DNA of 64,000 bases from Escherichia coli. Its GTDB lineage: Bacteria > Pseudomonadota > Gammaproteobacteria > Enterobacterales > Enterobacteriaceae. Below, one piece after another: positions 2,346-23,546 of this stretch. The DNA is taken from NCBI RefSeq assembly GCF_029227855.1, contig NZ_CP074357.1. One strand, written 5' to 3'. Made by a program: the position numbers and the translations under genes. How positions within the stretch are numbered: the stretch's first letter is position 1; each line of letters opens with the position of its first letter. The notes under the pieces were generated by a model. That model ran no database searches. It was not told the origin of the DNA and saw nothing but the letters and a program-made list of their open reading frames with translations.

Positions 2346-3165
2346 GGCACTGTTGCAAATAGTCGGTGGTGATAAACTTATCATCCCCTTTTGCTGATGG
2401 AGCTGCACATGAACCCATTCAAAGGCCGGCATTTTCAGCGTGACATCATTCTGTGGGCCGTACGCTGGTACTGCAAATACGGCATCAGTTACCGTGAGCT
2501 GCAGGAGATGCTGGCTGAACGCGGAGTGAATGTCGATCACTCCACGATTTACCGCTGGGTTCAGCGTTATGCGCCTGAAATGGAAAAACGGCTGCGCTGG
2601 TACTGGCGTAACCCTTCCGATCTTTGCCCGTGGCACATGGATGAAACCTACGTGAAGGTCAATGGCCGCTGGGCGTATCTGTACCGGGCCGTCGACAGCC
2701 GGGGCCGCACTGTCGATTTTTATCTCTCCTCCCGTCGTAACAGCAAAGCTGCATACCGGTTTCTGGGTAAAATCCTCAACAACGTGAAGAAGTGGCAGAT
2801 CCCGCGATTCATCAACACGGATAAAGCGCCCGCCTATGGTCGCGCGCTTGCTCTGCTCAAACGCGAAGGCCGGTGCCCGTCTGACGTTGAACACCGACAG
2901 ATTAAGTACCGGAACAACGTGATTGAATGCGATCATGGCAAACTGAAACGGATAATCGGCGCCACGCTGGGATTTAAATCCATGAAGACGGCTTACGCCA
3001 CCATCAAAGGTATTGAGGTGATGCGTGCACTACGCAAAGGCCAGGCCTCAGCATTTTATTATGGTGATCCCCTGGGCGAAATGCGCCTGGTAAGCAGAGT
3101 TTTTGAAATGTAAGGCCTTTGAATAAGACAAAAGGCTGCCTCATCGCTAACTTTGCAACAGTGCC
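2346..3165 (+). mobile_element. IS26 (820 bp, both 14-bp IRs present)
   Basis: GGCACTGTTGCAAA at 2346-2359 and TTTGCAACAGTGCC at 3152-3165; no 8-bp target duplication (flanks ctcgctct / ggattgaa). Confidence 0.97.
2409..3113 (+). CDS. tnp26: IS26 transposase Tnp26 (234 aa from MNPFKG; ORF track gives 240-aa form from 2391), G184 wild type
   Basis: [41 protein letters not shown].. Confidence 0.95.
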   Translation: MNPFKGRHFQRDIILWAVRWYCKYGISYRELQEMLAERGVNVDHSTIYRWVQRYAPEMEKRLRWYWRNPSDLCPWHMDETYVKVNGRWAYLYRAVDSRGRTVDFYLSSRRNSKAAYRFLGKILNNVKKWQIPRFINTDKAPAYGRALALLKREGRCPSDVEHRQIKYRNNVIECDHGKLKRIIGATLGFKSMKTAYATIKGIEVMRALRKGQASAFYYGDPLGEMRLVSRVFEM

Positions 3166-3234
3166 GGATTGAATATAACCGACGTGACTGTTACATTTAG
3201 GTGGCTAAACCCGTCAAGCCCTCAGGAGTGAATC

Positions 3235-4140
3235 ATGACCGTAGTCACGACCGCCGATACCTCCCAACTGTACGCACTTGCAGCCCGACATGGGCTCAAG
3301 CTCCATGGCCCGCTGACTGTCAATGAGCTTGGGCTCGACTATAGGATCGTGATCGCCACCGTCGACGATGGACGTCGGTGGGTGCTGCGCATCCCGCGCC
3401 GAGCCGAGGTAAGCGCGAAGGTCGAACCAGAGGCGCGGGTGCTGGCAATGCTCAAGAATCGCCTGCCGTTCGCGGTGCCGGACTGGCGCGTGGCCAACGC
3501 CGAGCTCGTTGCCTATCCCATGCTCGAAGACTCGACTGCGATGGTCATCCAGCCTGGTTCGTCCACGCCCGACTGGGTCGTGCCGCAGGACTCGGAGGTC
3601 TTCGCGGAGAGCTTCGCGACCGCGCTCGCCGCCCTGCATGCCGTCCCCATTTCCGCCGCCGTGGATGCGGGGATGCTCATCCGTACACCGACGCAGGCCC
3701 GTCAGAAGGTGGCCGACGACGTTGACCGCGTCCGACGCGAGTTCGTGGTGAACGACAAGCGCCTCCACCGGTGGCAGCGCTGGCTCGACGACGATTCGTC
3801 GTGGCCAGATTTCTCCGTGGTGGTGCATGGCGATCTCTACGTGGGCCATGTGCTCATCGACAACACGGAGCGCGTCAGCGGGATGATCGACTGGAGCGAG
3901 GCCCGCGTTGATGACCCTGCCATCGACATGGCCGCGCACCTTATGGTCTTTGGTGAAGAGGGGCTCGCGAAGCTCCTCCTCACGTATGAAGCGGCCGGTG
4001 GCCGGGTGTGGCCGCGGCTCGCCCACCACATCGCGGAGCGCCTTGCGTTCGGGGCGGTCACCTACGCACTCTTCGCCCTCGACTCGGGTAACGAAGAGTA
4101 CCTCGCTGCGGCGAAGGCGCAGCTCGCCGCAGCGGAATGA
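3235..4140 (+). CDS. mph(A): macrolide 2'-phosphotransferase Mph(A)
   Basis: 301-aa product MTVVTTADTSQLYALAARHGLKLHGPLTVNELGLDYRIVIATVDDGRRWVLRIPRRAEV..; first gene after IS26 as in the canonical IS26-mph(A)-mrx-mphR(A)-IS6100 unit. Confidence 0.95.
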   Translation: MTVVTTADTSQLYALAARHGLKLHGPLTVNELGLDYRIVIATVDDGRRWVLRIPRRAEVSAKVEPEARVLAMLKNRLPFAVPDWRVANAELVAYPMLEDSTAMVIQPGSSTPDWVVPQDSEVFAESFATALAALHAVPISAAVDAGMLIRTPTQARQKVADDVDRVRREFVVNDKRLHRWQRWLDDDSSWPDFSVVVHGDLYVGHVLIDNTERVSGMIDWSEARVDDPAIDMAAHLMVFGEEGLAKLLLTYEAAGGRVWPRLAHHIAERLAFGAVTYALFALDSGNEEYLAAAKAQLAAAE

Positions 4141-5375
4141 GCGAACGTCGATATAGCCCGCTCGCGACGCTGTTCGCGGCGACCTTTCTCTTCCGGATCG
4201 GCAACGCGGTGGCGGCCCTCGCGCTTCCATGGTTCGTCCTGTCTCATACAAAGAGCGCGGCCTGGGCGGGCGCCACGGCCGCTAGCAGCGTCATCGCGAC
4301 CATCATCGGCGCGTGGGTTGGTGGTGGCCTCGTCGATCGGTTCGGGCGCGCGCCCGTCGCATTGATCTCGGGTGTGGTGGGCGGCGTGGCCATGGCGAGC
4401 ATCCCACTGCTCGATGCCGTTGGCGCCCTCTCGAACACTGGGCTGATCGCTTGCGTGGTGCTCGGTGCTGCGTTCGACGCACCCGGTATGGCCGCGCAGG
4501 ACAGTGAGCTGCCCAAACTCGGCCACGTCGCCGGGCTCTCCGTTGAGCGCGTCTCGTCACTGAAAGCGGTGATCGGGAACGTCGCGATTCTAGGTGGCCC
4601 GGCCCTTGGGGGGGCCGCAATCGGCCTGCTTGGCGCTGCGCCAACGCTCGGGCTGACGGCGTTCTGCTCCGTCCTTGCAGGTCTGCTCGGCGCGTGGGTG
4701 CTTCCCGCGCGTGCCGCTCGGACGATGACCACGACGGCGACTCTCTCCATGCGCGCCGGCGTCGCTTTTCTCTGGAGCGAACCCCTGCTGCGCCCTCTCT
4801 TTGGTATAGTGATGATCTTCGTGGGCATCGTTGGCGCCAACGGCAGCGTCATCATGCCTGCGCTGTTTGTAGATGCAGGACGCCAAGTAGCAGAGCTCGG
4901 GCTGTTCTCCTCAATGATGGGGGCTGGTGGTCTCCTTGGCATTGCCATTCATGCGTCGGTCGGCGCCCGGATATCAGCGCAGAACTGGCTGGCGGTGGCA
5001 TTTTGTGGCTCTGCGGTGGGCTCGCTTCTGCTTTCACAGTTGCCAGGCGTGCCGGTGCTGATGTTGTTGGGCGCGCTCGTGGGACTGCTGACCGGCTCAG
5101 TCTCTCCCATTCTCAACGCTGCCATCTACAACCGCACGCCGCCAGAACTTCTCGGCCGGGTACTCGGCACGGTCTCGGCGGTGATGCTGTCAGCCTCGCC
5201 CATGGTTATGCTTGCGGCCGGCGCGTTTGTCGACCTTGCTGGTCCGCTCCCTGGCCTCGTTGTATCGGCCGTGTTTGCGGGGCTCGTGGCTCTACTCTCG
5301 CTCCGTCTTCAATTTGCTACAATGGCGGCGGCAGCCACAGCCTCCGCCCCAACCCATACAGAAGGTGAACACTGA
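4137..5375 (+). CDS. mrx(A): MFS transporter Mrx(A) of the mph(A) operon
   Basis: 412-aa hydrophobic ORF overlapping mph(A) stop; multiple TM segments. Confidence 0.9.
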   Translation: MSERRYSPLATLFAATFLFRIGNAVAALALPWFVLSHTKSAAWAGATAASSVIATIIGAWVGGGLVDRFGRAPVALISGVVGGVAMASIPLLDAVGALSNTGLIACVVLGAAFDAPGMAAQDSELPKLGHVAGLSVERVSSLKAVIGNVAILGGPALGGAAIGLLGAAPTLGLTAFCSVLAGLLGAWVLPARAARTMTTTATLSMRAGVAFLWSEPLLRPLFGIVMIFVGIVGANGSVIMPALFVDAGRQVAELGLFSSMMGAGGLLGIAIHASVGARISAQNWLAVAFCGSAVGSLLLSQLPGVPVLMLLGALVGLLTGSVSPILNAAIYNRTPPELLGRVLGTVSAVMLSASPMVMLAAGAFVDLAGPLPGLVVSAVFAGLVALLSLRLQFATMAAAATASAPTHTEGEH

Positions 5376-6718: not shown

Positions 6719-7500
6719 GGCACTGTTGCAAATAGTCGGTGGTGATAAACTTATCATCCCCTTTTGCTGATGGAGCTGCACATGAACCCATTCAAAGGCC
6801 GGCATTTTCAGCGTGACATCATTCTGTGGGCCGTACGCTGGTACTGCAAATACGGCATCAGTTACCGTGAGCTGCAGGAGATGCTGGCTGAACGCGGAGT
6901 GAATGTCGATCACTCCACGATTTACCGCTGGGTTCAGCGTTATGCGCCTGAAATGGAAAAACGGCTGCGCTGGTACTGGCGTAACCCTTCCGATCTTTGC
7001 CCGTGGCACATGGATGAAACCTACGTGAAGGTCAATGGCCGCTGGGCGTATCTGTACCGGGCCGTCGACAGCCGGGGCCGCACTGTCGATTTTTATCTCT
7101 CCTCCCGTCGTAACAGCAAAGCTGCATACCGGTTTCTGGGTAAAATCCTCAACAACGTGAAGAAGTGGCAGATCCCGCGATTCATCAACACGGATAAAGC
7201 GCCCGCCTATGGTCGCGCGCTTGCTCTGCTCAAACGCGAAGGCCGGTGCCCGTCTGACGTTGAACACCGACAGATTAAGTACCGGAACAACGTGATTGAA
7301 TGCGATCATGGCAAACTGAAACGGATAATCGGCGCCACGCTGGGATTTAAATCCATGAAGACGGCTTACGCCACCATCAAAGGTATTGAGGTGATGCGTG
7401 CACTACGCAAAGGCCAGGCCTCAGCATTTTATTATGGTGATCCCCTGGGCGAAATGCGCCTGGTAAGCAGAGTTTTTGAAATGTAAGGCCTTTGAATAAG
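6719..7500 (+). mobile_element. IS26 lacking the last 38 bp including the right IR
   Basis: Left IR at 6719; sequence matches IS26 up to ..CCTTTGAATAAG (7500) then diverges (gagagcatgaaaaacc..) instead of ACAAAAGGCTGCC..TTTGCAACAGTGCC. Confidence 0.85.
6782..7486 (+). CDS. tnp26: IS26 transposase Tnp26 (G184 wild type)
   Basis: Identical protein to the copy at 2409-3113. Confidence 0.95.
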   Translation: MNPFKGRHFQRDIILWAVRWYCKYGISYRELQEMLAERGVNVDHSTIYRWVQRYAPEMEKRLRWYWRNPSDLCPWHMDETYVKVNGRWAYLYRAVDSRGRTVDFYLSSRRNSKAAYRFLGKILNNVKKWQIPRFINTDKAPAYGRALALLKREGRCPSDVEHRQIKYRNNVIECDHGKLKRIIGATLGFKSMKTAYATIKGIEVMRALRKGQASAFYYGDPLGEMRLVSRVFEM

Positions 7501-7592
7501 GAGAGCATGAAAAACCTCGGGGCAGCCATCGAATGATGCCATCTACAGGGGTTAAAATAACCACCATCATTTCATAACAATACCTGCTGACT

Positions 7593-8183
7593 ATGAAGAT
7601 CTACGTCATCAAAATAGCAGTTCATGGAGTCAGTCCGATGGTCTGGCGTCGGCTGAGAATTGCTGCCGACACGTCACTGGCCGCGCTTCACTTCATTTTC
7701 CAGATAGTGCAGGGCTGGGGGGACGACCATCTCCATCAATTTCACATTTATGGCAAAGATTACGGTATCTCCTACGAAGGAGGCATCGGTTTTGTCGATA
7801 ATCCGTTCCGGGTCGTGATTGATGATTTTGCTTTTGATGCTGGCGATCGCTTTACCTATGAATACAATTTCTTTGAGCACTGGCTTCATGACATTCGTGT
7901 TGAGGCCATTTATGAAAACTCTACGCTGAAAGCGCCGTTTTGTATAAGCGGCCATGGTATGCCCGGAGCCACAGCTGCGGATGAGTTCGATAAAACCCTG
8001 GCGTTTCTTGAAGCTATCGTTAATGCGGATGATGAAACAACGGTCGGCGAGATCCGCCCTTTTGCTGACGACCTGGATGCTGTCAGGTTCAACCGCCACA
8101 AAATCAACCGGCAACTGAGCAGGCTCGACCTTGCATCTCCGGTACTGGAGCCTGAAGTTATCTGGCTGGGCCGTCGTCGCTGA
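7593..8183 (+). CDS. hypothetical protein, plasmid pRiA4b ORF-3-like family
   Basis: 196-aa ORF with the family-typical ..SPMVWRRLRI.. and ..HLHQFHI.. motifs (family recalled from memory). Confidence 0.6.
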   Translation: MKIYVIKIAVHGVSPMVWRRLRIAADTSLAALHFIFQIVQGWGDDHLHQFHIYGKDYGISYEGGIGFVDNPFRVVIDDFAFDAGDRFTYEYNFFEHWLHDIRVEAIYENSTLKAPFCISGHGMPGATAADEFDKTLAFLEAIVNADDETTVGEIRPFADDLDAVRFNRHKINRQLSRLDLASPVLEPEVIWLGRRR

Positions 8184-8319
8184 CTGATGTCTATAAAGGT
8201 ATACGTTTTCAGCATGCCTCTCAGATCCCCGAAAAAATGTCTATAAACCTCCCTAAATCAGTGTTTATGGATTATTCTTTAAATCTCTATGATGTTTAAA
8301 GACCTTCCGGAGGTTTTGC

Positions 8320-8892
8320 GTGCAATATGCCTACATCAGGGTAAGCTCGGCCGATCAGAATACGGCCCGTCAGGAAGAGGCATTGTCAAAGGCGGGTTTT
8401 CAGCCTGATAAAATTTGTGTTGAGCATGCCAGCGCGAAGGACACAAACCGCCCGGGGTTACAGGAACTCCTGGGGCAATTACGCCCTGGTGATACGCTTC
8501 TGGTTCATTCCATCGATCGCCTTTGCCGGAATATGTCGGATATGTGCGCTGTCACCACCCGGCTTCGTGACCAGGGCGTTACCCTTATTTTTCTGAAAGA
8601 GCAGCTGACGTTCAGCGCCGGCACAAACAATCCGATGCAGGAACTGCAGCTGCACATGATGTCGGCATTCAGCCAGTTTGAACGAGCCTTACTGAAGGAA
8701 AGGCAGGCCGACGGCATCGCCGCGAAAAAAGCACGGGGTGAAAAAACAGGGCGCCCCGGCGCCGATATCAAAAAGATCCAGGAAATTGACGCACTCAGAA
8801 GCAGAGGGGTCAGGCTCAGGATCGCCTGCGACCATGCGGGCCTTGGCGTTTCCACATATTATAAGCTTCGTCACCAGATGAACAACCAGTAG
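8320..8892 (+). CDS. serine recombinase (resolvase/invertase family)
   Basis: 190-aa ORF MQYAYIRVSSADQNTARQ.. with catalytic Ser motif and C-terminal HTH. Confidence 0.85.
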   Translation: MQYAYIRVSSADQNTARQEEALSKAGFQPDKICVEHASAKDTNRPGLQELLGQLRPGDTLLVHSIDRLCRNMSDMCAVTTRLRDQGVTLIFLKEQLTFSAGTNNPMQELQLHMMSAFSQFERALLKERQADGIAAKKARGEKTGRPGADIKKIQEIDALRSRGVRLRIACDHAGLGVSTYYKLRHQMNNQ

Positions 8893-8925
8893 CCGGGAGA
8901 TAGTCATCCACCACAGCAGGAGGCA

Positions 8926-10320
8926 ATGATGCAACTGACGCTCCAGATAGTCATCACCGATGAATCAGGCTCCAGTCGAACGGAGGAACTGATGACAATC
9001 CAGAAATCAGGGGAGACCCGGAACGACATCGGATTATCGGTGTCAGAATCCAAGCTGTTGCTGAATACGGTCCAGCAGTCGGTGGTCCAGCTGCAGGCAG
9101 ACGAATATACTCAACACCATATCCGGTGCCCTCACTGCCTTGCTGCGCGCAGAATCAAAGGCAAACAGAAAATACGGTACCGGACGCTGTTTGGCGTTAT
9201 TCCGGTATCCGGGCTTCGGGTGTACCGGTGCCGTTGTGAAGAGAGTGATACAAAGACAGTCAGTTTGCTCAGCGACTGGGCCGGCGATTATTCTCACCCG
9301 GCACTGAAATATATTGAAACCCGCTGGGCCTCGATGATCTCCTATGAAATGACGACTCGTCTGCTGAAAGATATTCTGCCGGTGGGCCACAGCCTGAATG
9401 CCTCAACGGTGAGGAATCATTTATGCCAGGTGGCGCAGCGTCTTGACGCTGAGGCTGAAGCTCATTCAGGTTTTCTTTCCGGCTGCCCCCGCGACTGGGG
9501 GAACCTGCCCAGGCCAGGAAAACCGCTTGTGGTGGGTATAGATGGTGGTTATGTTCGCGATCGGGATGACAAAAAGCGTAATTTTGAAATTATTGCCGGG
9601 AAGTCTTTTTCCGTTGGTGCGCCTGCTGACACCCGCCGCTTCGGTTTTGTTCAGAAGGATGACTGTCATCCGGAACGCAGGCTCATGACCCACCTTTCAG
9701 CGCAGGGAATGCAGGCCAACCAGCAGATATTTTTTCTGTCCGACGGCGCGGATAATCTCAGGGACCTCCAGTTCGGTATGTACCCTGAGTCAACGCATGT
9801 GCTGGACTGGTTTCATATCACCATGAGGCTGAAGGTGCTCATGCAATATGCCCGGGGACTGCTGGTATCAGATCCAGAGGCGGGGAGTAAAGTTCTGGCA
9901 CTGCTGGAAAGCATTAAACGATATCTCTGGCATGGCAATGTTGTCGCTGCGCTGGAACATATTGATAATTGCGTTATGTATTGCGATGACCCTGAACTCA
10001 GCTATCCTAGCCTGAAATCCCTGCAAAAACATCTGGATGAAATGTATACCTACATCCGGAATAATAAGATGATGATCCCAAACTACGGCGAAATGCGTCG
10101 GTACGGAGAGCCGGTATCAACCGCGTTTGTGGAATCCACGATCAATGAAGTGATCGCCAGACGAATGGCCAAAAAGCAGCAGATGCAGTGGAGCAGAAAA
10201 GGGGCTCATTATTTGTTACAGACCCGGACCGCCGTTTTGAATAACGAACTGCAGGATAAATTTGTCTGCTGGTATCCGGGTTTTCAAAGTGACGGGAAGG
10301 GACCAGCGATGGCAGCATAG
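8926..10320 (+). CDS. ISKra4-family transposase, ISKpn19-like (qnrS1-associated)
   Basis: 464-aa ORF; position next to qnrS1 matches the known ISKpn19-qnrS1 context (name from memory, not searched). Confidence 0.75.
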   Translation: MMQLTLQIVITDESGSSRTEELMTIQKSGETRNDIGLSVSESKLLLNTVQQSVVQLQADEYTQHHIRCPHCLAARRIKGKQKIRYRTLFGVIPVSGLRVYRCRCEESDTKTVSLLSDWAGDYSHPALKYIETRWASMISYEMTTRLLKDILPVGHSLNASTVRNHLCQVAQRLDAEAEAHSGFLSGCPRDWGNLPRPGKPLVVGIDGGYVRDRDDKKRNFEIIAGKSFSVGAPADTRRFGFVQKDDCHPERRLMTHLSAQGMQANQQIFFLSDGADNLRDLQFGMYPESTHVLDWFHITMRLKVLMQYARGLLVSDPEAGSKVLALLESIKRYLWHGNVVAALEHIDNCVMYCDDPELSYPSLKSLQKHLDEMYTYIRNNKMMIPNYGEMRRYGEPVSTAFVESTINEVIARRMAKKQQMQWSRKGAHYLLQTRTAVLNNELQDKFVCWYPGFQSDGKGPAMAA

Positions 10321-10630
10321 CTCACGCTGCCCCAATATTTTTTATGCTCTCCCCTATCACCTCCACATTTTTGCAACAGTGCCTTATAAATGGCAGCCTT
10401 ATGTTTACTTGCCAAGATGGGCTACCATATGATGTTTTATACTGAGCAATATTAATATTATCTTTAATGGAAAAATTAAGCCCACTAAGTGACCCACTGC
10501 TATATGGCTCTATTGTGAAGACGCCTGAGGGTAAAAATTTATACATGGTTGTCCCTATGTCTATTATTGCAAGGTTGACAATATTATTCGTTTTATAAAT
10601 TTGAGCGTTTAAAATCACACATCAAAGCAA

Positions 10631-11287
10631 TTAGTCAGGATAAACAACAATACCCAGTGCTTCGAGAATCAGTTCTTGCTGCCAGGCTGCAATTTTGATA
10701 CCTGATGTATCGACTTTGCGGGGATCTAAACCGTCGAGTTCGGCGTGGCATAAATTGGCACCCTGTAGGCTAAATTGCCCCCAGACATCTTCGGAAAAAA
10801 CACCTCGACTTAAGTCTGACTCTTTCAGTGATGCACCCGCTAGGTTCGTTCCTATCCAGCGATTTTCAAACAACTCACATTTTTCTAAACAAACCCTCTC
10901 CATATTGGCATAGGAAAGATTACATCCAGAAATAAATGCTGAGCAAAAGTACATACGATTACTCACTTGATGGGCAAAGTTTGTTCGGGAAAAGTTGGCA
11001 CCTTTTAAATCACACGCACGGAACTCTATACCGTAGCAATTGGCATTACTGAAGTTTGCCATCGCAAGTTGGCATTGTTGGAAACTTGCATCACGAAGAT
11101 CTGCGACATCAAAGTGGCAGCCTTCGATATCACCCTGTTCAATGAACTTGCAGTTGACGAATGTCGTATCACGCAAGTTAGCACGTCGAAAGTCGCTGCG
11201 AATGAATGTGCAAGCGGTGAAGGTGAGATCACTTAAGTCTTTATGTGAAAAGTTGTGGTGCCGATATGTATGATTGTAGGTTTCCAT
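10631..11287 (-). CDS. qnrS1: quinolone resistance pentapeptide-repeat protein QnrS1
   Basis: 218-aa product METYNHTYRHHNFSHKDLSDLTFTACTFIRSDFRRANLRDTTFVNCKFIEQGDIEGCHF.. Confidence 0.95.
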   Translation of the reverse strand: METYNHTYRHHNFSHKDLSDLTFTACTFIRSDFRRANLRDTTFVNCKFIEQGDIEGCHFDVADLRDASFQQCQLAMANFSNANCYGIEFRACDLKGANFSRTNFAHQVSNRMYFCSAFISGCNLSYANMERVCLEKCELFENRWIGTNLAGASLKESDLSRGVFSEDVWGQFSLQGANLCHAELDGLDPRKVDTSGIKIAAWQQELILEALGIVVYPD

Positions 11288-11654
11288 GAGTACTCCTTGT
11301 TGAAAGGAGGGCTAGACTACCATTATACATATGCCAAGACATTAAAATAAAAGCCTGTTACATCAACACATTACAACCCCTCAATTTACCTGTTTTAAGT
11401 GGTCAAATTGGCGCGTAGAGCGCCTATCGCTCTTGCATTGGCACGCGGCCCTGTTGAAAAAAGTTATTCGCTTTAGATAGGGTTAGGAGAGCCGTGCTTC
11501 GCCGGTAAAAAATCGGACTATCCGACGCAGGGCGGACTCATCGGCGGAGAAGCAAACTTTGACTATATCTCCCTACACTTGGAAGAGGGCTAGACTGGCC
11601 CCATAGATCACCAGACACTTCGACTCTCTTAAAATAAGAGGTAGTCTTGGAACT

Positions 11655-12050
11655 ATGTTTAATACCAGTCAGAACGATAAGATGGTTGAAGTGTTATCAG
11701 GACCTGAGCGGCGTCGGCGTCGTACACCGCAGGAAAAAATTGCCATTATTCAGCAGACTATGGAGCCCGGTATGACCGTGTCTCATGTCGCGCGCCTGCA
11801 TGGCATCAATGCAAACCAGATATTCAAATGGCGCAAGCAATATTAAGACGGTTCACTGACGGCTGTTGCATCGGGCGAGGAAGTGGTGCCGGCCTCCGAA
11901 CTCGCTGCCGCCAATAAGCAAATTCGCGAACTCCAGCGCCTTCTGGGCAAAAAGACGATGGAAGCCGAGATACTCAAAGAGGCCGTGGAGTTCGGCCGGG
12001 CAAAAAAATGGATTGCGCATGCGCCCTCGTTGCCTGGGAACGACGAATAA
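11655..12050 (+). pseudogene. IS2-like orfA with in-frame TAA at codon 64
   Basis: [70 protein letters not shown].. ; stop at 11844-11846 where IS2 has Gln. Confidence 0.7.
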
Positions 12051-12163
12051 GCGACGTTTGCAGAAGTCTTGGCGTGTCGCGTGCGCAGTTGAGCATTCGG
12101 GTTCACCGGCCATCTGACTGACAGGATCGCAGACGGCAGCCCCGTTCTGACGATACCACCGTA

Positions 12164-12697
12164 TTGTCCCGGATAAACATGGCGGTGGCTGACCTGCCGA
12201 CGTATGGTTATCGCCGTGTGTGGGCGCTGCTGCGACGGGAGTCGGAGCGGGACGGCCTGCCTGTGGTTAATGCAAAGCGGGTGTATCGCATTATGAGAAC
12301 GCATAATCTGCTTCTTGAACGTAAACCCGCTGATCCTTGCCGTAAGCGGGCCCATAAGGGGCGCGTAGCAGTAGCGGAAAGTAACCGGCGCTGGTGCTCA
12401 GATGGCTTTGAGTTCCGCTGTGATAATGGCGAAAAGCTGCGGGTGACCTTCGCGCAGGACTGCTGCGACAGGGAGATCATTGACTGGGCAGCGAGCACCG
12501 GAGGCTATGACAAAGAAACGGTGCAGGATGTCATGCTGGGTGCGGTGGAAAAACGCTTCGGAAGGCAGTTGCCAACAGTGCCGGCGTTCGCCCGGTTGCT
12601 GGGACTGGAGCCTTGTACGACAGCAGTGCGAAGCCCGGAAAGCAATGGCATAGCAGAAAGCTTCGTGATGACGATAAAACGGGACTACATCAGCATC
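12164..12697 (+). pseudogene. IS2-like orfB (DDE integrase core) truncated at ..DYISI by Tn2; in-frame TGA upstream at 12116-12118
   Basis: ..[67 protein letters not shown] matches IS2 InsD from memory. Confidence 0.75.
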
Positions 12698-12739
12698 AGG
12701 ATTTTAGGGGTCTGACGCTCAGTGGAACGAAAACTCACG

Positions 12740-15536
12740 TTAAGCAACGTTTTCTGCCTCTGACGCCTCTTTTAATGGTCTCAGATGTCCTTTGGTCACC
12801 AGTTCTGCCAGCGTGAAGGAATAATGGCCGAGCATATTGATATGTCCGTGGCAAAGCGGGGAGAGGCGTGCGATATCTTCATCATTCAGTGTTTCACCCT
12901 GCGCCCGGAGATGATCCAGGGCTGCCTGCATATAAATAGTGTTCCATAACACGACGGCGTTAGTGACCAGCCCCAGTGTGCCCAGTTGATCTTCCTGACC
13001 GTCGGTATATCGTTTTCTTATCTCACCTTTTTGACCGTGACAGATGGCTCTGGCAACGGCATGGCGACTTTCTCCCCGATTAAGCTGGGTCAGAATGCGC
13101 CGGCGGTAATCTTCATCATCAATATAATTAAGCAGATACAGCGTTTTGTTGATGCGCCCCACTTCAATGATTGCCTGAGTCAGTCCGGAAGGACGTTCAC
13201 TTTTCAGCAATGAACGGACCAGCACTGAAACCTGTACTTTGCCCAGCTTCAGGGAGCCAGCGGTCCGGATCATTTCGTCCCACTGAAGGACTATTTTTCG
13301 GGGATCTGATTGCCCTCTGGCAATATCATTCAGCACGCCATAGTCGGCATCATGGTCCATTCGCCAGAAAACCGAAGCACCGGCATCAGCCAGGCGTGGA
13401 GAAAACTGGTATCCCAGCAGCCAGAAAAGGCCAAAGACAAGTTCGCTGGCACCTGCTGTATCGGTCATAATTTCGGTTGGATTCAGCCCGGTCTCCTGTT
13501 CCAGAAGACCTTCCAGCACAAAGATAGAGTCCCTCAGCGTCCCCGGTATAACGATGCCATGAAAGCCGGAATACTGATCGGACACAAAGTTGTACCAGGT
13601 GATCCCTCTGTTATTACCAAAGTATTTGCGGTTCGGTCCGGCATTGATTGTTCTGACTGGCGTAACAAAGCGCATTCCATCTGCAGATGCCACTTCTCCT
13701 CCACCCCATATCTGTGCCAGTGGCAGCGTTGCCTGAAAATCAACCAGTCTGGCATTAGCGCTGGTGATAGTTTCAGCCCGCAGATAGTTCGCTTTTGTCC
13801 AGTTCAGCCGGTGTCGGGTCAGTGCAGGAACATTTGATCTGATCAGTGGTTCCAGACCGATATTGCAGGCTTCAGCCATCAGCACGGCGCTGATGCTGAC
13901 GGGCAGATCATCAACTCTGGCACTGGCTTCACTAGCATGGAAAAACTCATCAGCAAATCCGGTATGGGCGTTAATTTCGAGCAGCAACTCCGTTAAATCC
14001 ACCGGAGGGAGTAGATCACTGATCATTTTGCTCAGTCGTTTCAGACTGTCCGGCTCATCAAGACTGGCGAGGGGAGAAATTGTCAACCGGGGCTTCGGGC
14101 CAGAAACATCGAGTTCGACAGCCTCATTTTCGCAAAGACGTGCAGCAACCTGTCTGTAACGACTATCAAGCTGATGACCCAGAGATTTTATTGCTTCCTG
14201 CGGGTCTGTCGGGTGCCCCAAAGAACGATAAACCTTAATCCGGTTTGCCTGCCAGTCAGCACCCTGTAGTAATCTTGCACGAGGATCTCCCCACCGGTTA
14301 CTGCCGGTAACGTAGACATCCCTCCGCCTCAGACTATCCTGCAGTTTACTGAGAAAGCAGAGCGTGTATCCCCTGCGGGTGATATGTTTTTCCTTGTTAA
14401 TCACCAGCCGTTTCCATGACCGACTGATAATTTCCGTTGGTGCGTCGTCAAAAAACTGCCGCCGTGAGCTGAACTCCCGGCTGAGGTAGTCACAGGCATT
14501 CAGAGTGGTAACCCCGGCAGGTGCGGATGAAAATTTAACGGTATTCAGCAGATGGGGCAGGAAACGACGAACGCGCCCGTACTGCTCCACCATTTCTTCA
14601 TGAAAATTATCGTCTGAGGGCCGGGCAATTTCACGGACAAGCGTGATGATTTCAGCCAGCTTTTGCCTTGGGATGTAGCTGAACACCTCAGCACGAATCG
14701 ATTCGTCCGGTGTTTCTTCTTTCAGCAGGTACGAACATGCGCTGGCGAGCGCCAATGCAGATTTATCCAGATCCTTCAGCGAGCGGAGCCGTTTTTTCTG
14801 CCCAATCTTTCTGGCGTCACGGATGATAACGGCCAGCATGGCGTCCAGAACGTCCAATGCATCATCCAGCGCCAGCGTTTCCCATGCAAGGACAAAGGCA
14901 ACCAGAACCGCCATCCTTTTCTGCGGTGACATCCTGGCAATATTGAACACCGAAGTCATACCAGCATAACGTGCGAGATTTTTCAGGCGCACAGCCGGGA
15001 GTGTACTCAGGTTTTCAGCATGCAGGCCAAAATCGTTCAGAGTTTTCCAGCGTTCAATTGCTTCATTAAACGCCGGACCACTGATGGTCACAGGGCCCTT
15101 TTTCAGTGATTCCAGTAAAGACAGGCGGCTGCAATCAGTTGGCCCCAGCAGCATCTCCAGCTGTGAACGCTGTTCGGCTGACGGTATCAGTGCCAGTTTG
15201 TTCCACAGGCGCAACGTCGCCTTTTCCCTTACCTCTGAAATCAACCGGGTCAGCGTAGTGGCTCCGGGGAGAATAATACGATGTTGCATAAGCCACCCTG
15301 TCGCCAGATCGAAAAGCAGGCCAGGACGTTCGTTGCTTATCCAGCTCCGGGTATATAAAAGACGGGTAAGGCGAAATGTCCAGGGCCAGGCAAATTCACG
15401 ATACTGATAGTGCTGACGTATCAGCGCTGCATGCTCACGGCGGGTATTTTCCCTCTGACCGTATTCTGCAAGAACGGTGATATCACGAATCCCGAGCTGT
15501 CTGGCGGTAAAATGCCGGACGCCGGAAGGAATATGA
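12740..15536 (-). pseudogene. tnpA: Tn2 tnpA, 3' portion (interrupted by ISEcp1 unit)
   Basis: Minus-strand frame encodes Tn3 TnpA from ..IPSGVRHFTAR.. to the C-terminus ..KEASEAENVA. Confidence 0.9.
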
Positions 15537-15548
15537 CCTGGGACCTAC

Positions 15549-15881
15549 GTGCGCCCGCACCGACACCCTCACACCTTCGAGCTACTGTTGCCATTAAGGG
15601 GTCGTTTCGTGGTGCTGAATTTTGACGATCGGGGTACCGTCACCCATCGGGCGATATTGGGGGAAACCTGTACGGTGCTGGAGATGGCCGCAGGAACCTG
15701 GCATGCCGTGCTGTCGCTGGATACCGGTGGCATAATTTTTGAAGTAAAACACGGTGGCTATCAACCCGTGGCTGCCGATGACTATGCGCACTGGGCTCCA
15801 GCGGAAGGAGAACCAGGAACCACGGAGCTTATGGCCTGGTATGCGCAAGCGCAGGTGGGCGACAGCACTTTTGCCGTCTAA
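15549..15881 (+). CDS. wbuC: cupin-fold WbuC (orf477), truncated form usually found downstream of blaCTX-M-15-like genes
   Basis: 110-aa ORF (GTG start) immediately downstream of and opposite to blaCTX-M. Confidence 0.7.
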   Translation: MRPHRHPHTFELLLPLRGRFVVLNFDDRGTVTHRAILGETCTVLEMAAGTWHAVLSLDTGGIIFEVKHGGYQPVAADDYAHWAPAEGEPGTTELMAWYAQAQVGDSTFAV

Positions 15882-15927
15882 GGCGATAAACAAAAACGGA
15901 ATGAGTTTCCCCATTCCGTTTCCGCTA

Positions 15928-18507
<2,580 letters not shown>

Positions 18508-18721
18508 TATGATTCATATCGGTGAGGAAGGTGCCCAGAAAACGGACACATCCAATTTGCAGGGCAATGCCCAGACGGTTGTGATCACCTCTGCTTTTTC
18601 CGATAAATTCCTTGTCTGCTTCATCAAGGTGAAAATATCGTGCCAGCTGAAGCTCATCCGGTTCACCGGTGAATCTGCCATAGCTTTCAGTCTGCTCAGT
18701 GGTCAGAAAGTCAACGGGCAT
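18508..18721 (-). pseudogene. tnpA: Tn2 tnpA, 5' portion (first ~71 codons)
   Basis: [71 protein letters not shown] then ISEcp1 IRL. Confidence 0.9.
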
Positions 18722-18782
18722 ATCGGCCTCCCTGCCTGACGGGCATTTAGTAACATTTTTCCAACCGTACGAAATGTTATAA

Positions 18783-19442
<660 letters not shown>

Positions 19443-19612
19443 TACGCCTATTTTTATAGGTTAATGTCATGATAATAATGGTTTCTTAGACGTCAGGTGG
19501 CACTTTTCGGGGAAATGTGCGCGGAACCCCTATTTGTTTATTTTTCTAAATACATTCAAATATGTATCCGCTCATGAGACAATAACCCTGGTAAATGCTT
19601 CAATAATATTGA

Positions 19613-20485
<873 letters not shown>

Positions 20486-20810
20486 CTGTCAGACCAAGTT
20501 TACTCATATATACTTTAGATTGATTTAAAACTTCATTTTTAATTTAAAAGGATCTAGGTGAAGATCCTTTTTGATAATCTCATGACCAAAATCCCTTAAC
20601 GTGAGTTTTCGTTCCACTGAGCGTCAGACCCCTGTTAAAAGCAGCTCACGGGGAACGCGTCAGTCCGGCTTCATAACGGGTCGGCTGGCAGCATCTGACT
20701 CAGCAAAAGACCGGGCGCTGTGAGCGGAAATATGGCCGGTTTTCGCCAGAACCCGGTTCCACGCAGAATTACACCTGCACTGAATATACCGCTTCTGGCG
20801 TCGATTTTTT

Positions 20811-20863
20811 CTGCTCCCCTGCAGCATGAGGCTCTGTAAGGCAGCCTGCTGCAAGGGGAGCAG
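20811..20863 (+). promoter_or_regulatory. long imperfect hairpin (16-17-bp stem) just upstream of the PBP gene
   Basis: CTGCTCCCCTGCAGCA ..20-nt loop.. TGCTGCAAGGGGAGCAG read directly; no following T-tract. Confidence 0.4.
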
Positions 20864-20875
20864 ACTCCAGCGAAA

Positions 20876-22624
20876 ATGATAAAAAACTCCGCGATGAAAA
20901 ATAAACAAAGTATTCGCCCGTCATCACCTGAGAAGGGATTCAGCAACGTCAGATATAATATTCTTCTTGCCGGTATCGCATTAATCTTTATCGTGCTGGT
21001 TGCCAGGCTCACCGGACTTCAGCTTTTTGACCACGCTGTCCTGGAAAATGCGGCTGACCGTCGATCCGTACGGACACTTGCACTGCCAGCACAGCGCGGA
21101 ACCCTGACCGATCGTTACGGCGTTGTTCTCGCCATGAGCGTGCCGGCACGTGACATCATTGCTGATCCAAAACGCATCGCTGCCGCTCATCCGGACTTCG
21201 CGGAAGCCAGATGGGCTTTTCTGGCCGACTTGCTGGATATCACGCCTGAGGAACTTCGCAGAACTATTCAAGATAATTCGGACAAGGAATTCCTGTTTCT
21301 GAAGAAAAAGTCGCCCCTGTCATTGTCCAGGGCCGTGTCACAGCTGCATCTGCCGGGCATAAGTCAGAAATACAATGAAAATCGCTACTATCCGCTGGGT
21401 GAGGCATCAGCCTCGCTCATTGGTGTGACCGGTGCCGAAAATAGAGGGCTGAGTGGTATTGAGCAGAGCTTTAACACCGTTCTGAGAAAGGACTTCGGGG
21501 TGAAAAAAATACGCAAAAACGCCAGGGGGGGCGTCATCAGCGTGATCCAGTATGACGCTCCGGAAACTGCACCGGCGATCAGGCTGAGTATTGACAGTGT
21601 GCTTCAGTATATTGTTTACAGCCGGTTAAGGGAGGGGGTCGAGCAACATCACGCCCAGTCAGGCGCTGCGGTGCTTGTCAGCGTAAACACCGGCGAAATT
21701 CTGGCTATGGCATCCTATCCGTCGTTTAATCCCAACCGTTTTTCCGGTGCCACTTCCGCTGAAATGCGTAACGTGGCGATTAATGACAGCTTTGAGCCGG
21801 GTTCAACGGTTAAACCCTTCGTCATTCTTGAAGGCCTGCGCCGCCATATTATCAGCAGCAGCACGCTTCTTGACACAAGGCCGTTCAGGGTTGACGGCCA
21901 TCTTATCCGGGACGTGGGATACTGGCCGGCGCTGACGCCGACCGGCATACTTCAGAAATCCAGTGATACCGGAGTTTCACATATTGCCCTGGCGATGCCT
22001 TCGGATGCGCTGGTAAAAACGTATTCATCCTTCGGGCTGGGAAAACCGACAGGGCTGGGCCTTCCCGGTGAAAGTACTGGTTACTTTCCGTTCAGTCGCC
22101 ATCGATGGGCTGATATTGAGCGCGCCACCTTCGCTTTTGGCTACGGCCTCCGGGTAACCCCGCTCCAGTTAGCCAGAGCCTATGCCACTCTCGGGGCCTG
22201 TGGCGTTTATCATCCGTTATCCGTTACACGGTTATCCGCGCCGGTGTACGGTGAGCAGGTGGCGGACCCGAAGCTTGCCGATGCTGTAATCAGAATGATG
22301 GAAAGTGATGTGTTACCCGGCGGAAGTGGCGTAAGGGCAGCTGTACCGGGCTACCGTCTGGCAATAAAAACCGGAACCGCAGAGAAGTTAGGTGCCGGTG
22401 GAAAATATGACGGGGGGCATATTACCTATACGGCAGGCGTCGCGCCGGCGAGCCGTCCTGAAGTGGCACTGGTTGTGGTTATTAACAATCCCAAAGCGGG
22501 ACAGCATTTTGGTGGCTCAGTGGCGGCGCCTGTCTTCGGCCAGATTATCGGTCCGGTGCTTACCCGGCTGAAGATTGCACCGGATGCTTTACGTGCTCCG
22601 GTGGTACACCGACAGTCCGGCTGA
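20876..22624 (+). CDS. class B penicillin-binding protein, FtsI/PBP3-like transpeptidase
   Basis: 582 aa, N-terminal TM helix, ..EPGSTVKPF.. (SXXK), ..LQKSSDTG.. (SSN position reads SSD), ..KTGTAE.. (KTG); aligns by eye to E. coli FtsI. Confidence 0.85.
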   Translation: MIKNSAMKNKQSIRPSSPEKGFSNVRYNILLAGIALIFIVLVARLTGLQLFDHAVLENAADRRSVRTLALPAQRGTLTDRYGVVLAMSVPARDIIADPKRIAAAHPDFAEARWAFLADLLDITPEELRRTIQDNSDKEFLFLKKKSPLSLSRAVSQLHLPGISQKYNENRYYPLGEASASLIGVTGAENRGLSGIEQSFNTVLRKDFGVKKIRKNARGGVISVIQYDAPETAPAIRLSIDSVLQYIVYSRLREGVEQHHAQSGAAVLVSVNTGEILAMASYPSFNPNRFSGATSAEMRNVAINDSFEPGSTVKPFVILEGLRRHIISSSTLLDTRPFRVDGHLIRDVGYWPALTPTGILQKSSDTGVSHIALAMPSDALVKTYSSFGLGKPTGLGLPGESTGYFPFSRHRWADIERATFAFGYGLRVTPLQLARAYATLGACGVYHPLSVTRLSAPVYGEQVADPKLADAVIRMMESDVLPGGSGVRAAVPGYRLAIKTGTAEKLGAGGKYDGGHITYTAGVAPASRPEVALVVVINNPKAGQHFGGSVAAPVFGQIIGPVLTRLKIAPDALRAPVVHRQSG

Positions 22625-22688
22625 ACAGAGCCTGTTTACTCATTATTTATCTATTATTACTTAACTTAATTTTAAAAAGGATATTAAT

Positions 22689-23546
22689 ATGAAAAAGATC
22701 CGCCTTATTATAATCTCTTTACTGGCTGGAATGTGTACTCCAGCATTATCTACACCAGTCAATGTTACTGATACAATACAAAGCACAGAAGACCATATCA
22801 AAGGTCGGGTTGGTTTTACTGAAATAGACTTTTTATCCGGGAAGGTTCTGAGTAGTCATCGCCGTGAAGAACGTTTTCCTATGATGAGCACATTCAAAGT
22901 TTTGTTATGTGGAGCAATATTAGTACGTGTTGATAAAGGGCTTGAACAACTTGAACGCCGAATTACCTATAATAAGCATGACCTGGACGACTATTCTCCA
23001 CTAACCAGTCAGCACATTGCAGATGGAATGACGGTTTCTGAGTTATGCAATGCTGCCATTACCACCAGTGATAACACTGCTGCAAATTTATTGCTATCAA
23101 CTATTGGCGGGCCGGAGGGATTAACTCATTTTCTGCGTAGCACTGGTGATAGTTATACAAGGCTTGATCGACACGAACCCAGCCTTAATGAGGCGAAGCC
23201 TGGCGATGAGCGTGATACCACCACTCCGGCAGCGATGGCTCAAACGCTACAAAAATTGTTAAACGAAAGTGTACTTACAGAAAAATCTCGAAAAAAATTA
23301 ATAAGCTGGATGCAGGAAGATAAAGTCGGCGGGCCTCTGTTCCGCTCTGTACTGCCAGCTGGCTGGATGATAGCGGATAAAACAGGAGCAGGTGATCACG
23401 GATCTCGGGGCATCGTTGCACTGTTGGGCCCCGGAGGCAAGCCATCTCGTATAGTAGTCCTGTATATTACAAATACTCATTCATCTATGAATGAACTCAA
23501 CGAGCATATTGCAGGGATCGGAGATTCAGTAATTAAGAACTGGTAA
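22689..23546 (+). CDS. blaLAP-2: class A beta-lactamase LAP (LAP-2 is the allele usually linked to qnrS1)
   Basis: 285 aa TEM-like: ..[17 protein letters not shown].., ..SDNTAANLL.., ..[12 protein letters not shown].., ..[12 protein letters not shown].. Confidence 0.8.

Follow-up and report, generated by a model that had tools for sequence, protein, structure and literature searches.

The DNA analysed here, referred to as the window, is a stretch of 64,000 nucleotides of Escherichia coli contig NZ_CP074357.1, in which a Tn2-type element lies between a qnrS1 segment on the left and a blaLAP-2 segment on the right. ISKpn19 (7500–10352, +; 2,853 bp) bounds the qnrS1 segment on the left; it has 27-nt terminal inverted repeats at 7500–7526 and 10326–10352 and genes for a pRiA4b-ORF3-like product, a recombinase and an ISKra4-family transposase. 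The same sequence is found at 100% identity in more than 1,700 plasmids, where it is annotated as an ISKpn19-family transposase, and its IRL adjoins a truncated IS26 at 6719–7500. Next come qnrS1 (10631–11287, −), taken from the ORF list and 100% identical to qnrS1 of the collinear plasmid pCFSA1096, and an IS2-like element truncated to positions 1–1108 of 1,282 (copy 1; 11591–12698, +), as determined by local BLAST against the full copy in locus L002. The full copy of 1,282 bp has the ends TAGACTGGCCCC... and ...GGGTCAAATCCA and carries depositor annotations as IS3 family, insD or IS2. The truncated element has been named ΔISEcl2 (PMC5027574), and it is called ISEcl2-like here after that description rather than after an ISfinder entry. 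A second copy (23558–24674, −; positions 1282 to 166), located by repeat comparison and local BLAST, is inverted relative to the first and cut by IS26 (24675–25494). Together with 11753/11756–12698 it makes a perfect inverted repeat of 943–946 bp; IS positions 166–1108 are thus present on both sides of Tn2, and copy 2 is unbroken at 1108/1109.

Perfect 38-bp inverted repeats, both GGGGTCTGACGCTCAGTGGAACGAAAACTCACGTTAAG, are located at 12707–12744 and 20595–20632 and are the sole such pair in the window, with none expected from shuffled sequences. The element that they delimit (12707–20632) is 7,926 bp long, including a 2,971-bp ISEcp1 unit in tnpA. Boundary reading, repeat search and shuffles define the IRL at the tnpA end (12707–12744, +) and the IRR at the bla end (20595–20632, −); the first-pass annotation had swapped these labels, placing the IRR at 12707. 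The 3′ portion of tnpA up to the ISEcp1-unit insertion (12745–15536, −) is 100% identical to positions 1–2830 of the Tn2 of locus L003 and pHP2, and the remainder of the transposon (18508–20594, +), which includes the res region, to positions 2826–4950. Annotation from pCFSA1096 places the tnpA 5′ fragment at 18503–18721 (−), tnpR at 18885–19442 (+) and blaTEM-1 at 19625–20485 (+). After removal of the ISEcp1 unit, the element is 100% identical to the 4,950-bp Tn2 of L003 and pHP2, with the organisation tnpA-res-tnpR-blaTEM and the blaTEM-1b allele; the bla gene of pHP2 was typed as blaTEM-1B (PMC9118779). It is named Tn2 through this identity and through literature usage, in which the CTX-M-55 context of this kind bears that name, rather than by Tn1/Tn2/Tn3 reference sequences.

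The ISEcp1-blaCTX-M-55-orf477Δ unit (15537–18507, −; 2,971 bp) was delimited by comparison with the uninterrupted Tn2, and its genes were mapped from pCFSA1096: orf477/WbuC (15549–15881, +), blaCTX-M-55 (15928–16803, −) and ISEcp1 tnp (17059–18321, −). It shows all the features of an ISEcp1 transposition unit, namely an IRL at one end (the terminus ...CTGACGTAGAATCTAGG is the reverse complement of the ISEcp1 IRL), a captured downstream gene and a 5-bp duplication, TATGA, at 15532–15536 and 18508–18512. Because this unit splits tnpA at 15536/18508 and leaves no intact transposase, the window Tn2 is incapable of autonomous transposition.

On the right, the DNA beyond 20632, which the first-pass annotation had regarded as unrelated, consists of the last 44 bp of ampH (20633–20676, +), recognised from the uninterrupted target in 27 plasmids and from the end of the coding sequence at position 6046 of L002. 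It is followed by a gene for a penicillin-binding transpeptidase (PBP; 20894–22624, +) and by blaLAP-2 (22689–23546, +), both assigned from the ORF list, the pCFSA1096 annotation and the ancestral module.

Direct reading of positions 12690–12750 gives ...TCAGCATCA followed by GGATTTTA and GGGGTCTGACGCTCAGTGGAACGAAAACTCACGTTAAG at the left boundary, and around 20632 the sequence is ...CTTAACGTGAG...GTCAGACCCC followed by TGTTAAAAGCAGC. The 5-bp flanks of Tn2, TTTTA (12702–12706) and TGTTA (20633–20637), differ by one base; therefore no target duplication surrounds the window copy, and re-inspection agreed on this point with the first-pass annotation. Between the truncated IS2-like element and Tn2 lie the 8 bp GGATTTTA (12699–12706, +). 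IS2-like copy 2 and the full-length copy in L002 both run past the base equivalent to 12698 as TGCCGAAACC, and therefore GGATTTTA belongs at that point to neither the IS nor Tn2, as had been claimed.

The same 8 bp had also been taken for filler made at the junction, a view contradicted by a comparison of empty IncX1 loci (L011/L012), pHP2 (L010) and the window. Empty IncX1 backbones (OW967202, CP055715) read ...CCTCTGGGG GGATTTTA TGGGTGTT with a single copy of the 8-mer. In pHP2 the order is ...CCTCTGGGG GGATTTTA, ISKpn19...ΔISEcl2, GGATTTTA, Tn2, TTTTA TGGGTGTT; the two 8-mers are exactly 5,668 bp apart and bracket the ISKpn19-qnrS1-ΔISEcl2 segment, and Tn2 sits inside one of them with a perfect TTTTA duplication. 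Since the 8-mer is single in the empty backbone and duplicated in pHP2, the "filler" is IncX1 target DNA that was carried along, and its last 5 bp are a genuine Tn2 duplication there. By this comparison, GGATTTTA is the 8-bp duplication produced when the ISKpn19-qnrS1-ΔISEcl2 segment inserted into an IncX1 backbone, and TTTTA at 12702–12706 is the left-hand repeat of the duplication originally made by Tn2. Other copies of GGATTTTA in the window and the fetched loci were considered as a source; they are internal to IS26 and a Tn1721-related stretch, and none is at a junction. Matches of 7/8 inside the Tn2 IRR (GGATTTTG) and at the inverted ISEcl2 end (GGATTTGA) were put down to chance, given the exact IncX1 source. 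The ΔISEcl2-GGATTTTA-Tn2 IRL junction occurs in at least 513 plasmids, where the IRR flanks are of at least five different kinds, and qnrS1-ΔISEcl2-8bp-Tn2::ISEcp1-CTX-M-15/55 with other IRR flanks exists independently, representing the left parent type. A backbone-GGATTTTA-ΔISEcl2 arrangement without Tn2, that is, the qnrS1 segment with an empty Tn2 site, was found in none of the PLSDB plasmids.

How the qnrS1 segment entered IncX1 is a question of its own. In pHP2 the ISKpn19 IRL is itself the segment boundary, and the 8-bp duplication brackets the whole 5,668-bp segment; the other ISKpn19 copies examined (L014–L016) have no duplication around ISKpn19 alone, and when the left 8-mer of ISKpn19 was sought downstream in every fetched locus, it was repeated only in pHP2. 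It is possible, although we give it somewhat less than an even chance, that ISKpn19 moved itself together with 2.8 kb (qnrS1 and 1,108 bp of ISEcl2) into IncX1 by one-ended, ISEcp1-like transposition with an 8-bp duplication, that Tn2 then entered the duplication, and that all IncF, IncI, IncHI2 and other copies descend from that one event. One-ended transposition of this type by ISKpn19 is not described in the literature examined. If this were true, the 8-bp scar would mark the birthplace of the globally spread qnrS1-ΔISEcl2-Tn2 module.

The right flank has a different history. In 27 plasmids the uninterrupted target within ampH reads ...CCGCTCC TGTTA AAAGCAGC, and this native TGTTA belongs, in the uninterrupted ancestral module, to the 3′ end of ampH, which lies upstream of PBP-blaLAP-2. 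TGTTA at 20633–20637 would be the right-hand repeat of another Tn2 target duplication, distinct from that of TTTTA. The claim that the two flanks of the window Tn2 did not come from one simple insertion thus held good, with two different native targets traced. The IRR-TGTTA-PBP junction is present in about 83 plasmids, including L007, L008 and L009, in which IS26 truncates Tn2 from the tnpA side, with two different cut points among them, and ISEcl2-qnrS1-ISKpn19 remains whole downstream; the PBP-linked Tn2 of L008 has no ISEcp1 unit. Neither the reciprocal ampH...TGTTA-IRL junction, searched with a chimeric query, nor the presumed parent, a complete Tn2 in ampH with TGTTA on both sides, was found among the 72,556 plasmids of PLSDB and 5,426 complete E. 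coli genomes. Searches of GTDB genomes and JGI metagenomes for the exact pattern gave no hit but were uninformative, the positive control (the IRR-PBP junction) being absent there too.

Taken together, the window Tn2 is probably a recombinant of two copies, each end of which carries the scar of a different 5-bp-duplicating insertion, and the joining of two Tn2 copies by recombination within Tn2 is the most likely event. Two partial copies of the qnrS1/LAP-2 module are brought together here in inverted orientation. The course of events may be pictured as follows. The 5,668-bp ISKpn19-ΔtnpR-qnrS1-ΔISEcl2(1–1108) segment entered an IncX1 backbone and duplicated GGATTTTA, and Tn2 then inserted into the copy on the ISEcl2 side, duplicating TTTTA; both steps are seen in present-day plasmids, as the product, ΔISEcl2-GGA-TTTTA-Tn2-TTTTA-backbone, persists in pHP2-like IncX1 plasmids. 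Another Tn2, seen as a separate structure, would have inserted at TGTTA at the 3′ end of ampH in the ancestral ampH-PBP-blaLAP-2-ISEcl2-qnrS1-ISKpn19 module. Recombination between the two transposons, which we infer, would have linked the IncX1-scarred IRL half, already with its ISEcp1-blaCTX-M-55 unit, to the ampH-scarred IRR half, either homologously in the 2.1 kb that separates the ISEcp1 unit from the IRR or through TnpR at res. Finally, IS26 cut the second ISEcl2 copy at position 166, as is visible in the window. The window-type structure would be a simple single-crossover product of the left-parent and right-junction forms, and from a comparison of L006-type and L008-type parents the crossover would have to lie within 18513–20632. 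No SNP mosaic marks a crossover, all compared Tn2 segments being 100% identical. IncX1 would be the birthplace as judged from present-day plasmids rather than from dated ancestors.

A single replicative transposition could also have made these junctions, in which the qnrS1-linked, IncX1-scarred Tn2, with tnpA then intact, entered the ampH TGTTA of a second module copy. It may have involved two molecules and a cointegrate that stayed unresolved, or a single molecule and the deletion outcome; either would directly leave ΔISEcl2-8bp-Tn2-TGTTA-PBP and would place the IS26-truncated forms (L007–L009) and the ISEcp1 unit at a later stage, as derivatives. Tn3-family replicative transposition does go through cointegrates, the exact joint between the IRR and the ampH target makes this junction a true transposition product, and the absence of the reciprocal ampH...TGTTA-IRL junction from PLSDB and the E. 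coli genomes is what a deletion or a lost cointegrate half predicts. That absence carries little weight, since the forms that survive have lost this side to IS26. However, an extra recombination would be needed to put the ISEcp1-blaCTX-M-55 unit at the TATGA site known from other Tn2 copies, and the PBP-linked Tn2 of L008 lacks the unit. In addition, Tn3-family transposition immunity disfavours targets on a molecule that already carries the transposon, and TnpR resolves cointegrates efficiently. We therefore regard the one-step route as unlikely.

Far less probable is the intramolecular transposition proposed in the first-pass annotation, by which a Tn2 internal to a single qnrS1-ISEcl2-blaLAP-2-PBP module inverted PBP-blaLAP-2. 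In its favour, PBP and blaLAP-2 lie in inverted orientation with respect to qnrS1 (10631–11287), and the two Tn2 junctions have the order and orientation of the first copy when an inversion product is worked out on paper for the ancestral module (L002). Such an event should nevertheless split ISEcl2 only once, whereas both copies contain positions 166–1108, with no break at 1108/1109 in copy 2; this presence of 943 bp of the IS on either side excludes a simple in-place inversion. The second inverted Tn2 that it calls for was looked for, and not even a fragment is present within the 64-kb window. Moreover, the left junction is no clean joint of IS and Tn2: it includes 8 bp of IncX1 DNA, and in IncX1 plasmids lacking blaLAP-2 the Tn2 at this junction has a perfect target duplication. 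Inversion models drawn on paper, one for the IRR flank of L003 and one for that of the window, predicted flanks other than those observed. What survives of the proposal is a recombination-type event through Tn2 that joined qnrS1 to PBP-blaLAP-2, the latter being part of a second, separately derived module copy. It is hardly conceivable that the flanks stem from one simple insertion whose 5-bp duplication was later point-mutated, or that the arrangement is an assembly artefact across a repeat. The two 5-mers are indeed one base apart, but each is native to its own empty site, GGATTTTA-TGGG in IncX1 and CC-TGTTA-AAAGC in ampH, the sequences beyond them are unrelated, and about 45 complete plasmids, sequenced independently, carry the very same 11.4-kb arrangement.

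Recombination between two Tn2 copies, the preferred reading, adds little biological surprise to a region already known as a widely circulating resistance mosaic (qnrS1, blaCTX-M-55, blaTEM-1, blaLAP-2), and recombination between copies routinely yields Tn2 with non-matching flanks. The mosaic is fixed and inherited both vertically and horizontally, and has no function of its own. Its value lies in the scars, which serve as exact markers of lineage: descendants of one insertion event in IncX1 can be recognised by GGATTTTA beside the Tn2 IRL, and those of one insertion in ampH by TGTTA beside the IRR, and the two combined make the spread of the modules traceable across plasmid types. With the 943-bp perfect inverted repeat and IS26, the region may still be able to flip or rearrange by homologous recombination or IS26 activity.

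The 11.4-kb structure is 100% identical in the roughly 45 plasmids mentioned above, mostly of 200–330 kb, and two carriers, pCFSA1096 and pSal016, have IncHI2 replicons. pCFSA1096 (NZ_CP033347.2) is 100% identical over window positions 11300–22700 and collinear over 1–30069; it has a 468-bp ΔtnpR fragment by the right end of ISKpn19, in contrast to the window, which is without it and is rearranged beyond 30069. The gene order qnrS1-ΔIS3/ISEcl2-Tn3(Tn2)-orf477-blaCTX-M-55-ISEcp1 has been described in IncHI2 plasmids such as pSal016 (PMC9396133), and no discussion of the Tn2 flanks or the 8 bp was found in the published descriptions of the qnrS1-blaCTX-M-55 IncHI2 region that were examined. The pHP2-type IncX1 plasmids (NZ_MH121702; Shigella flexneri KJ201886 and CP020088) share with the window the ISKpn19-qnrS1-ΔISEcl2(1108)-GGATTTTA-Tn2 IRL junction and carry an identical 4,950-bp Tn2 with blaTEM-1B, intact, with TTTTA on both sides and with the IRR leading into the IncX1 backbone. 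Unlike the window, they have neither the ISEcp1 unit nor PBP-blaLAP-2. In the ancestral-type module ampH-PBP-blaLAP-2-ISEcl2-qnrS1-ISKpn19 (E. hormaechei NZ_CP030350), with which the IS26-bounded LAP-2/qnrS1 transposons (PMC4635468) are grouped, PBP, blaLAP-2, ISEcl2 and qnrS1 are 100% identical to those of the window, but there is one complete IS, the ancestral gene order and no Tn2. Tn6292, proposed as a Tn3-family unit transposon comprising qnrS1-ΔISEcl2 with an ISKpn19 insertion (PMC5027574), has the same ISKpn19, resolvase fragment, qnrS1 and ΔISEcl2 as the window. In contrast to that model, the segment in pHP2 is bounded by the ISKpn19 IRL itself, with a duplication of 8 bp rather than the 5 bp of the Tn3 family. 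Hybrid Tn1/Tn2/Tn3 copies in resistance regions, with intact IRs and non-matching 5-bp flanks, were reportedly explained by Partridge and Hall, for the blaTEM transposons, through inter-copy recombination; compared with such hybrids in general, the window copy has no mosaic inside the transposon, and both of its original target sites are identified.

The Tn2-type element is delimited by a perfect pair of 38-bp Tn3-family inverted repeats at 12707–12744 and 20595–20632, with no others in the 64-kb window (0 expected from shuffles), and totals 7,926 bp. The transposon itself accounts for 4,950 bp, 100% identical by local BLAST to the copies in NZ_LR213454 (L003) and pHP2 (NZ_MH121702), and carries a 2,971-bp ISEcp1-blaCTX-M-55-orf477 unit (15537–18507) with its own 5-bp duplication, TATGA. 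Since the 3′ end of tnpA lies next to the repeat at 12707, that terminus is by convention the IRL; the first-pass annotation, which called it the IRR, had the label swapped. The left junction (12688–12718) reads ...CATCAGCATCA/GGATTTTA/GGGGTCTGACGC... and the right one (20623–20645) ...GTCAGACCCC/TGTTAAAAGCAGC.... The flanking 5-mers differ (TTTTA versus TGTTA), and therefore this Tn2 copy lacks a target duplication, as that annotation had stated.

The sequence to the left of the 8 bp (12699–12706, GGATTTTA) is a 1,282-bp IS3-family element, named ISEcl2 in the literature (PMC5027574). Copy 1 (11591–12698) comprises positions 1–1108, whereas copy 2 (23558–24674) is inverted downstream of blaLAP-2 and comprises positions 1282 to 166, IS26 truncating it at 24675; the two form a perfect inverted repeat of 943–946 bp. 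Beyond position 1108, both copy 2 and the complete element of NZ_CP030350 (L002) read TGCCGAAACC. The 8 bp is therefore not IS sequence there, in keeping with the earlier view that it is foreign to the IS2-like element. An independent Tn2-ISEcl2 junction is present in NZ_CP125196.1 (2085–2200), in which the IRR meets ISEcl2 at window-equivalent 12405, in the orientation opposite to that of the window's junction.

The origin of the 8 bp was settled by a three-way comparison of empty IncX1 backbones, pHP2 and the window. The empty backbones OW967202 and CP055715 carry the 8-mer as a single copy, ...CCTCTGGGG GGATTTTA TGGGTGTTAACG.... pHP2 reads ...CCTCTGGGG GGATTTTA/ISKpn19 ... ΔISEcl2 ...CATCA GGATTTTA/Tn2/TTTTA TGGGTGTTAACG..., with the same Tn2 between a perfect TTTTA duplication and an 8-bp direct repeat bracketing a 5,668-bp segment from the ISKpn19 IRL to ISEcl2 position 1108. 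A query of the Tn2 IRR plus TTTTA matched a group of 41–68-kb E. coli, Shigella and Salmonella plasmids with a flank like the pHP2 IncX1 backbone, the pHP2-like members being ~47.7 kb. The "filler" is IncX1 target DNA, and in its last five bases the left side of the original Tn2 duplication survives; Tn2 inserted into the right-hand copy of the 8-bp repeat, after the 5,668-bp segment. Our best guess for the cause of the 8-bp duplication is ISKpn19 acting one-ended; elements of its family, ISKra4, typically give 8–9-bp repeats. The junction of ISEcl2 position 1108, the 8 bp and the IRL is shared by at least 513 plasmids, with five different IRR flanks in five examples. No plasmid in the PLSDB collection has ISEcl2 ending at 1108 beside any other neighbour, which argues for a single origin.

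The right flank is resolved by L002, an E. hormaechei plasmid with ampH-PBP-blaLAP-2-ISEcl2 (complete)-qnrS1-ISKpn19 and no Tn2, PBP being the penicillin-binding transpeptidase gene. Its uninterrupted target reads ...CCGCTCC TGTTA AAAGCAGCTCAC..., so the window's right flank is the final 44 bp of ampH, to which TGTTA is native. Upstream of PBP-blaLAP-2, L002 1–6046 holds the ampH, LysR regulator, MBL-fold hydrolase and c-di-GMP phosphodiesterase genes of the ancestral-type plasmids, a set that may be part of the chromosomal source of blaLAP. The IRR-TGTTA-PBP junction was found in ~83 PLSDB plasmids. Its history is separate from those of the left junction and the ISEcp1 insertion, because it stands alone in three loci (L007–L009), where IS26 has cut away the tnpA side of Tn2, at two different points, and ISEcl2-qnrS1-ISKpn19 is complete downstream, and because the Tn2 of L008 lacks the ISEcp1 unit.

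Three forms occur independently in the database: qnrS1-ΔISEcl2-8bp-Tn2 with tnpA intact (pHP2, L003, L004); the same structure with an ISEcp1-blaCTX-M-15/55 unit inserted at TATGA and flanks that vary on the IRR side (L005, L006 and, of the 60 matches listed among 120 records for the 11.4-kb query, 15 that align just as far as the IRR); and Tn2(IRR)-PBP-blaLAP-2-ISEcl2-qnrS1 (L007–L009). The window type is most likely the product of a single crossover between the second and third forms, the exchange point lying within 18513–20632; IS26 then truncated the second ISEcl2. Tn2 copies of this lineage must have recombined with one another in any case, as the ISEcp1 unit lies at the identical TATGA site in copies with differing IRR flanks (L005, L006 and the window). 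All Tn2 segments compared are identical, and for this reason homologous and res-specific recombination are indistinguishable.

That the transposon did not arrive by simple insertion thus holds, each 5-mer being native to a different empty site, and so does the proposal that a recombination event joined the qnrS1 and PBP-blaLAP segments. The intramolecular inversion of PBP-blaLAP proposed with it does not. On paper, in-place inversion within one ancestral module gives both Tn2 junction orientations, yet it predicts an IS split once without overlap, whereas 943 bp of IS lie on both sides; it also predicts a second inverted Tn2 at 1108/1109, where ISEcl2 copy 2 is continuous, and it is ruled out as well by the IncX1 DNA at the left junction. 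No second Tn2 fragment is present in the window; the first-pass annotation had suggested seeking a second inverted copy elsewhere on the replicon. In the main rival reading, the qnrS1-linked Tn2 transposed replicatively straight into ampH, and either the cointegrate stayed unresolved or DNA within the molecule was deleted. This fits the absence of a reciprocal ampH...TGTTA/IRL junction from both PLSDB and the E. coli genomes; GTDB and metagenome scans missed the positive-control junction too, and are uninformative. However, the ISEcp1 unit would have to be brought in by a further step, and we consider this route unlikely for that reason. A point-mutated duplication (TTTTA versus TGTTA) is excluded by the two empty sites, each of which natively carries its own 5-mer, and an assembly artefact by the occurrence of the identical 11.4 kb in ~45 independent plasmids.

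Several neighbouring junctions were also observed. Directly right of ISKpn19 (10351–10353), a 468-bp 3′ part of a resolvase gene (GGTCGTATGG...GTAGTAC) is missing from the window and retained in pCFSA1096, pHP2 and all other qnrS1 loci compared; the gap looks like a deletion beginning exactly at the ISKpn19 end. An IS26 copy without its terminal 38 bp (6719–7500) abuts the ISKpn19 IRL (...GGCCTTTGAATAA/GGAGAGC), as in L004 and L005, and internal IS26 sequence abuts the opposite end of ISKpn19 in L016; no target duplication was seen at these junctions. Between ISKpn19 and qnrS1 (10355–10383), every qnrS1 locus retains an IS26-IR-like remnant (...TTTTTGCAACAGTGCC), suggesting that the ancestral module underwent an old IS26 event. 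The 40 bp beside the Tn2 IRR in L003 (14958–14997, TAAAAGAACTTTCCGCTAAGCGATAGACTG...) match exactly, in reverse complement, those beside the ISKpn19 IRL (minus strand) in L008, so that two element ends share strB-side sequence; paper models of inversion failed to explain this. IS26 is present in the window as seven full-length copies and one fragment. One of the seven (58713–59532, inverted) bounds the block 58712–64000, which matches pCFSA1096 at 100% and is inverted relative to the collinear block 1–30069.

Mismatched Tn2 flanks are a routine result of recombination between copies. The gene order of the region has been published, for the IncHI2 plasmid pSal016, as qnrS1-IS3-Tn3-orf-blaCTX-M-55-ISEcp1 (PMC9396133). 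The published descriptions examined for this region mention neither the Tn2 flanks nor the 8 bp. The 8-bp IncX1 duplication as the source of the latter is a minor addition to them, and the scar is a handy lineage marker. The overall structure is an ordinary mosaic, already known: the whole arrangement is 100% identical in the IncHI2 plasmid pCFSA1096 and, among the matches listed, in ~45 other plasmids, mostly of 200–330 kb.
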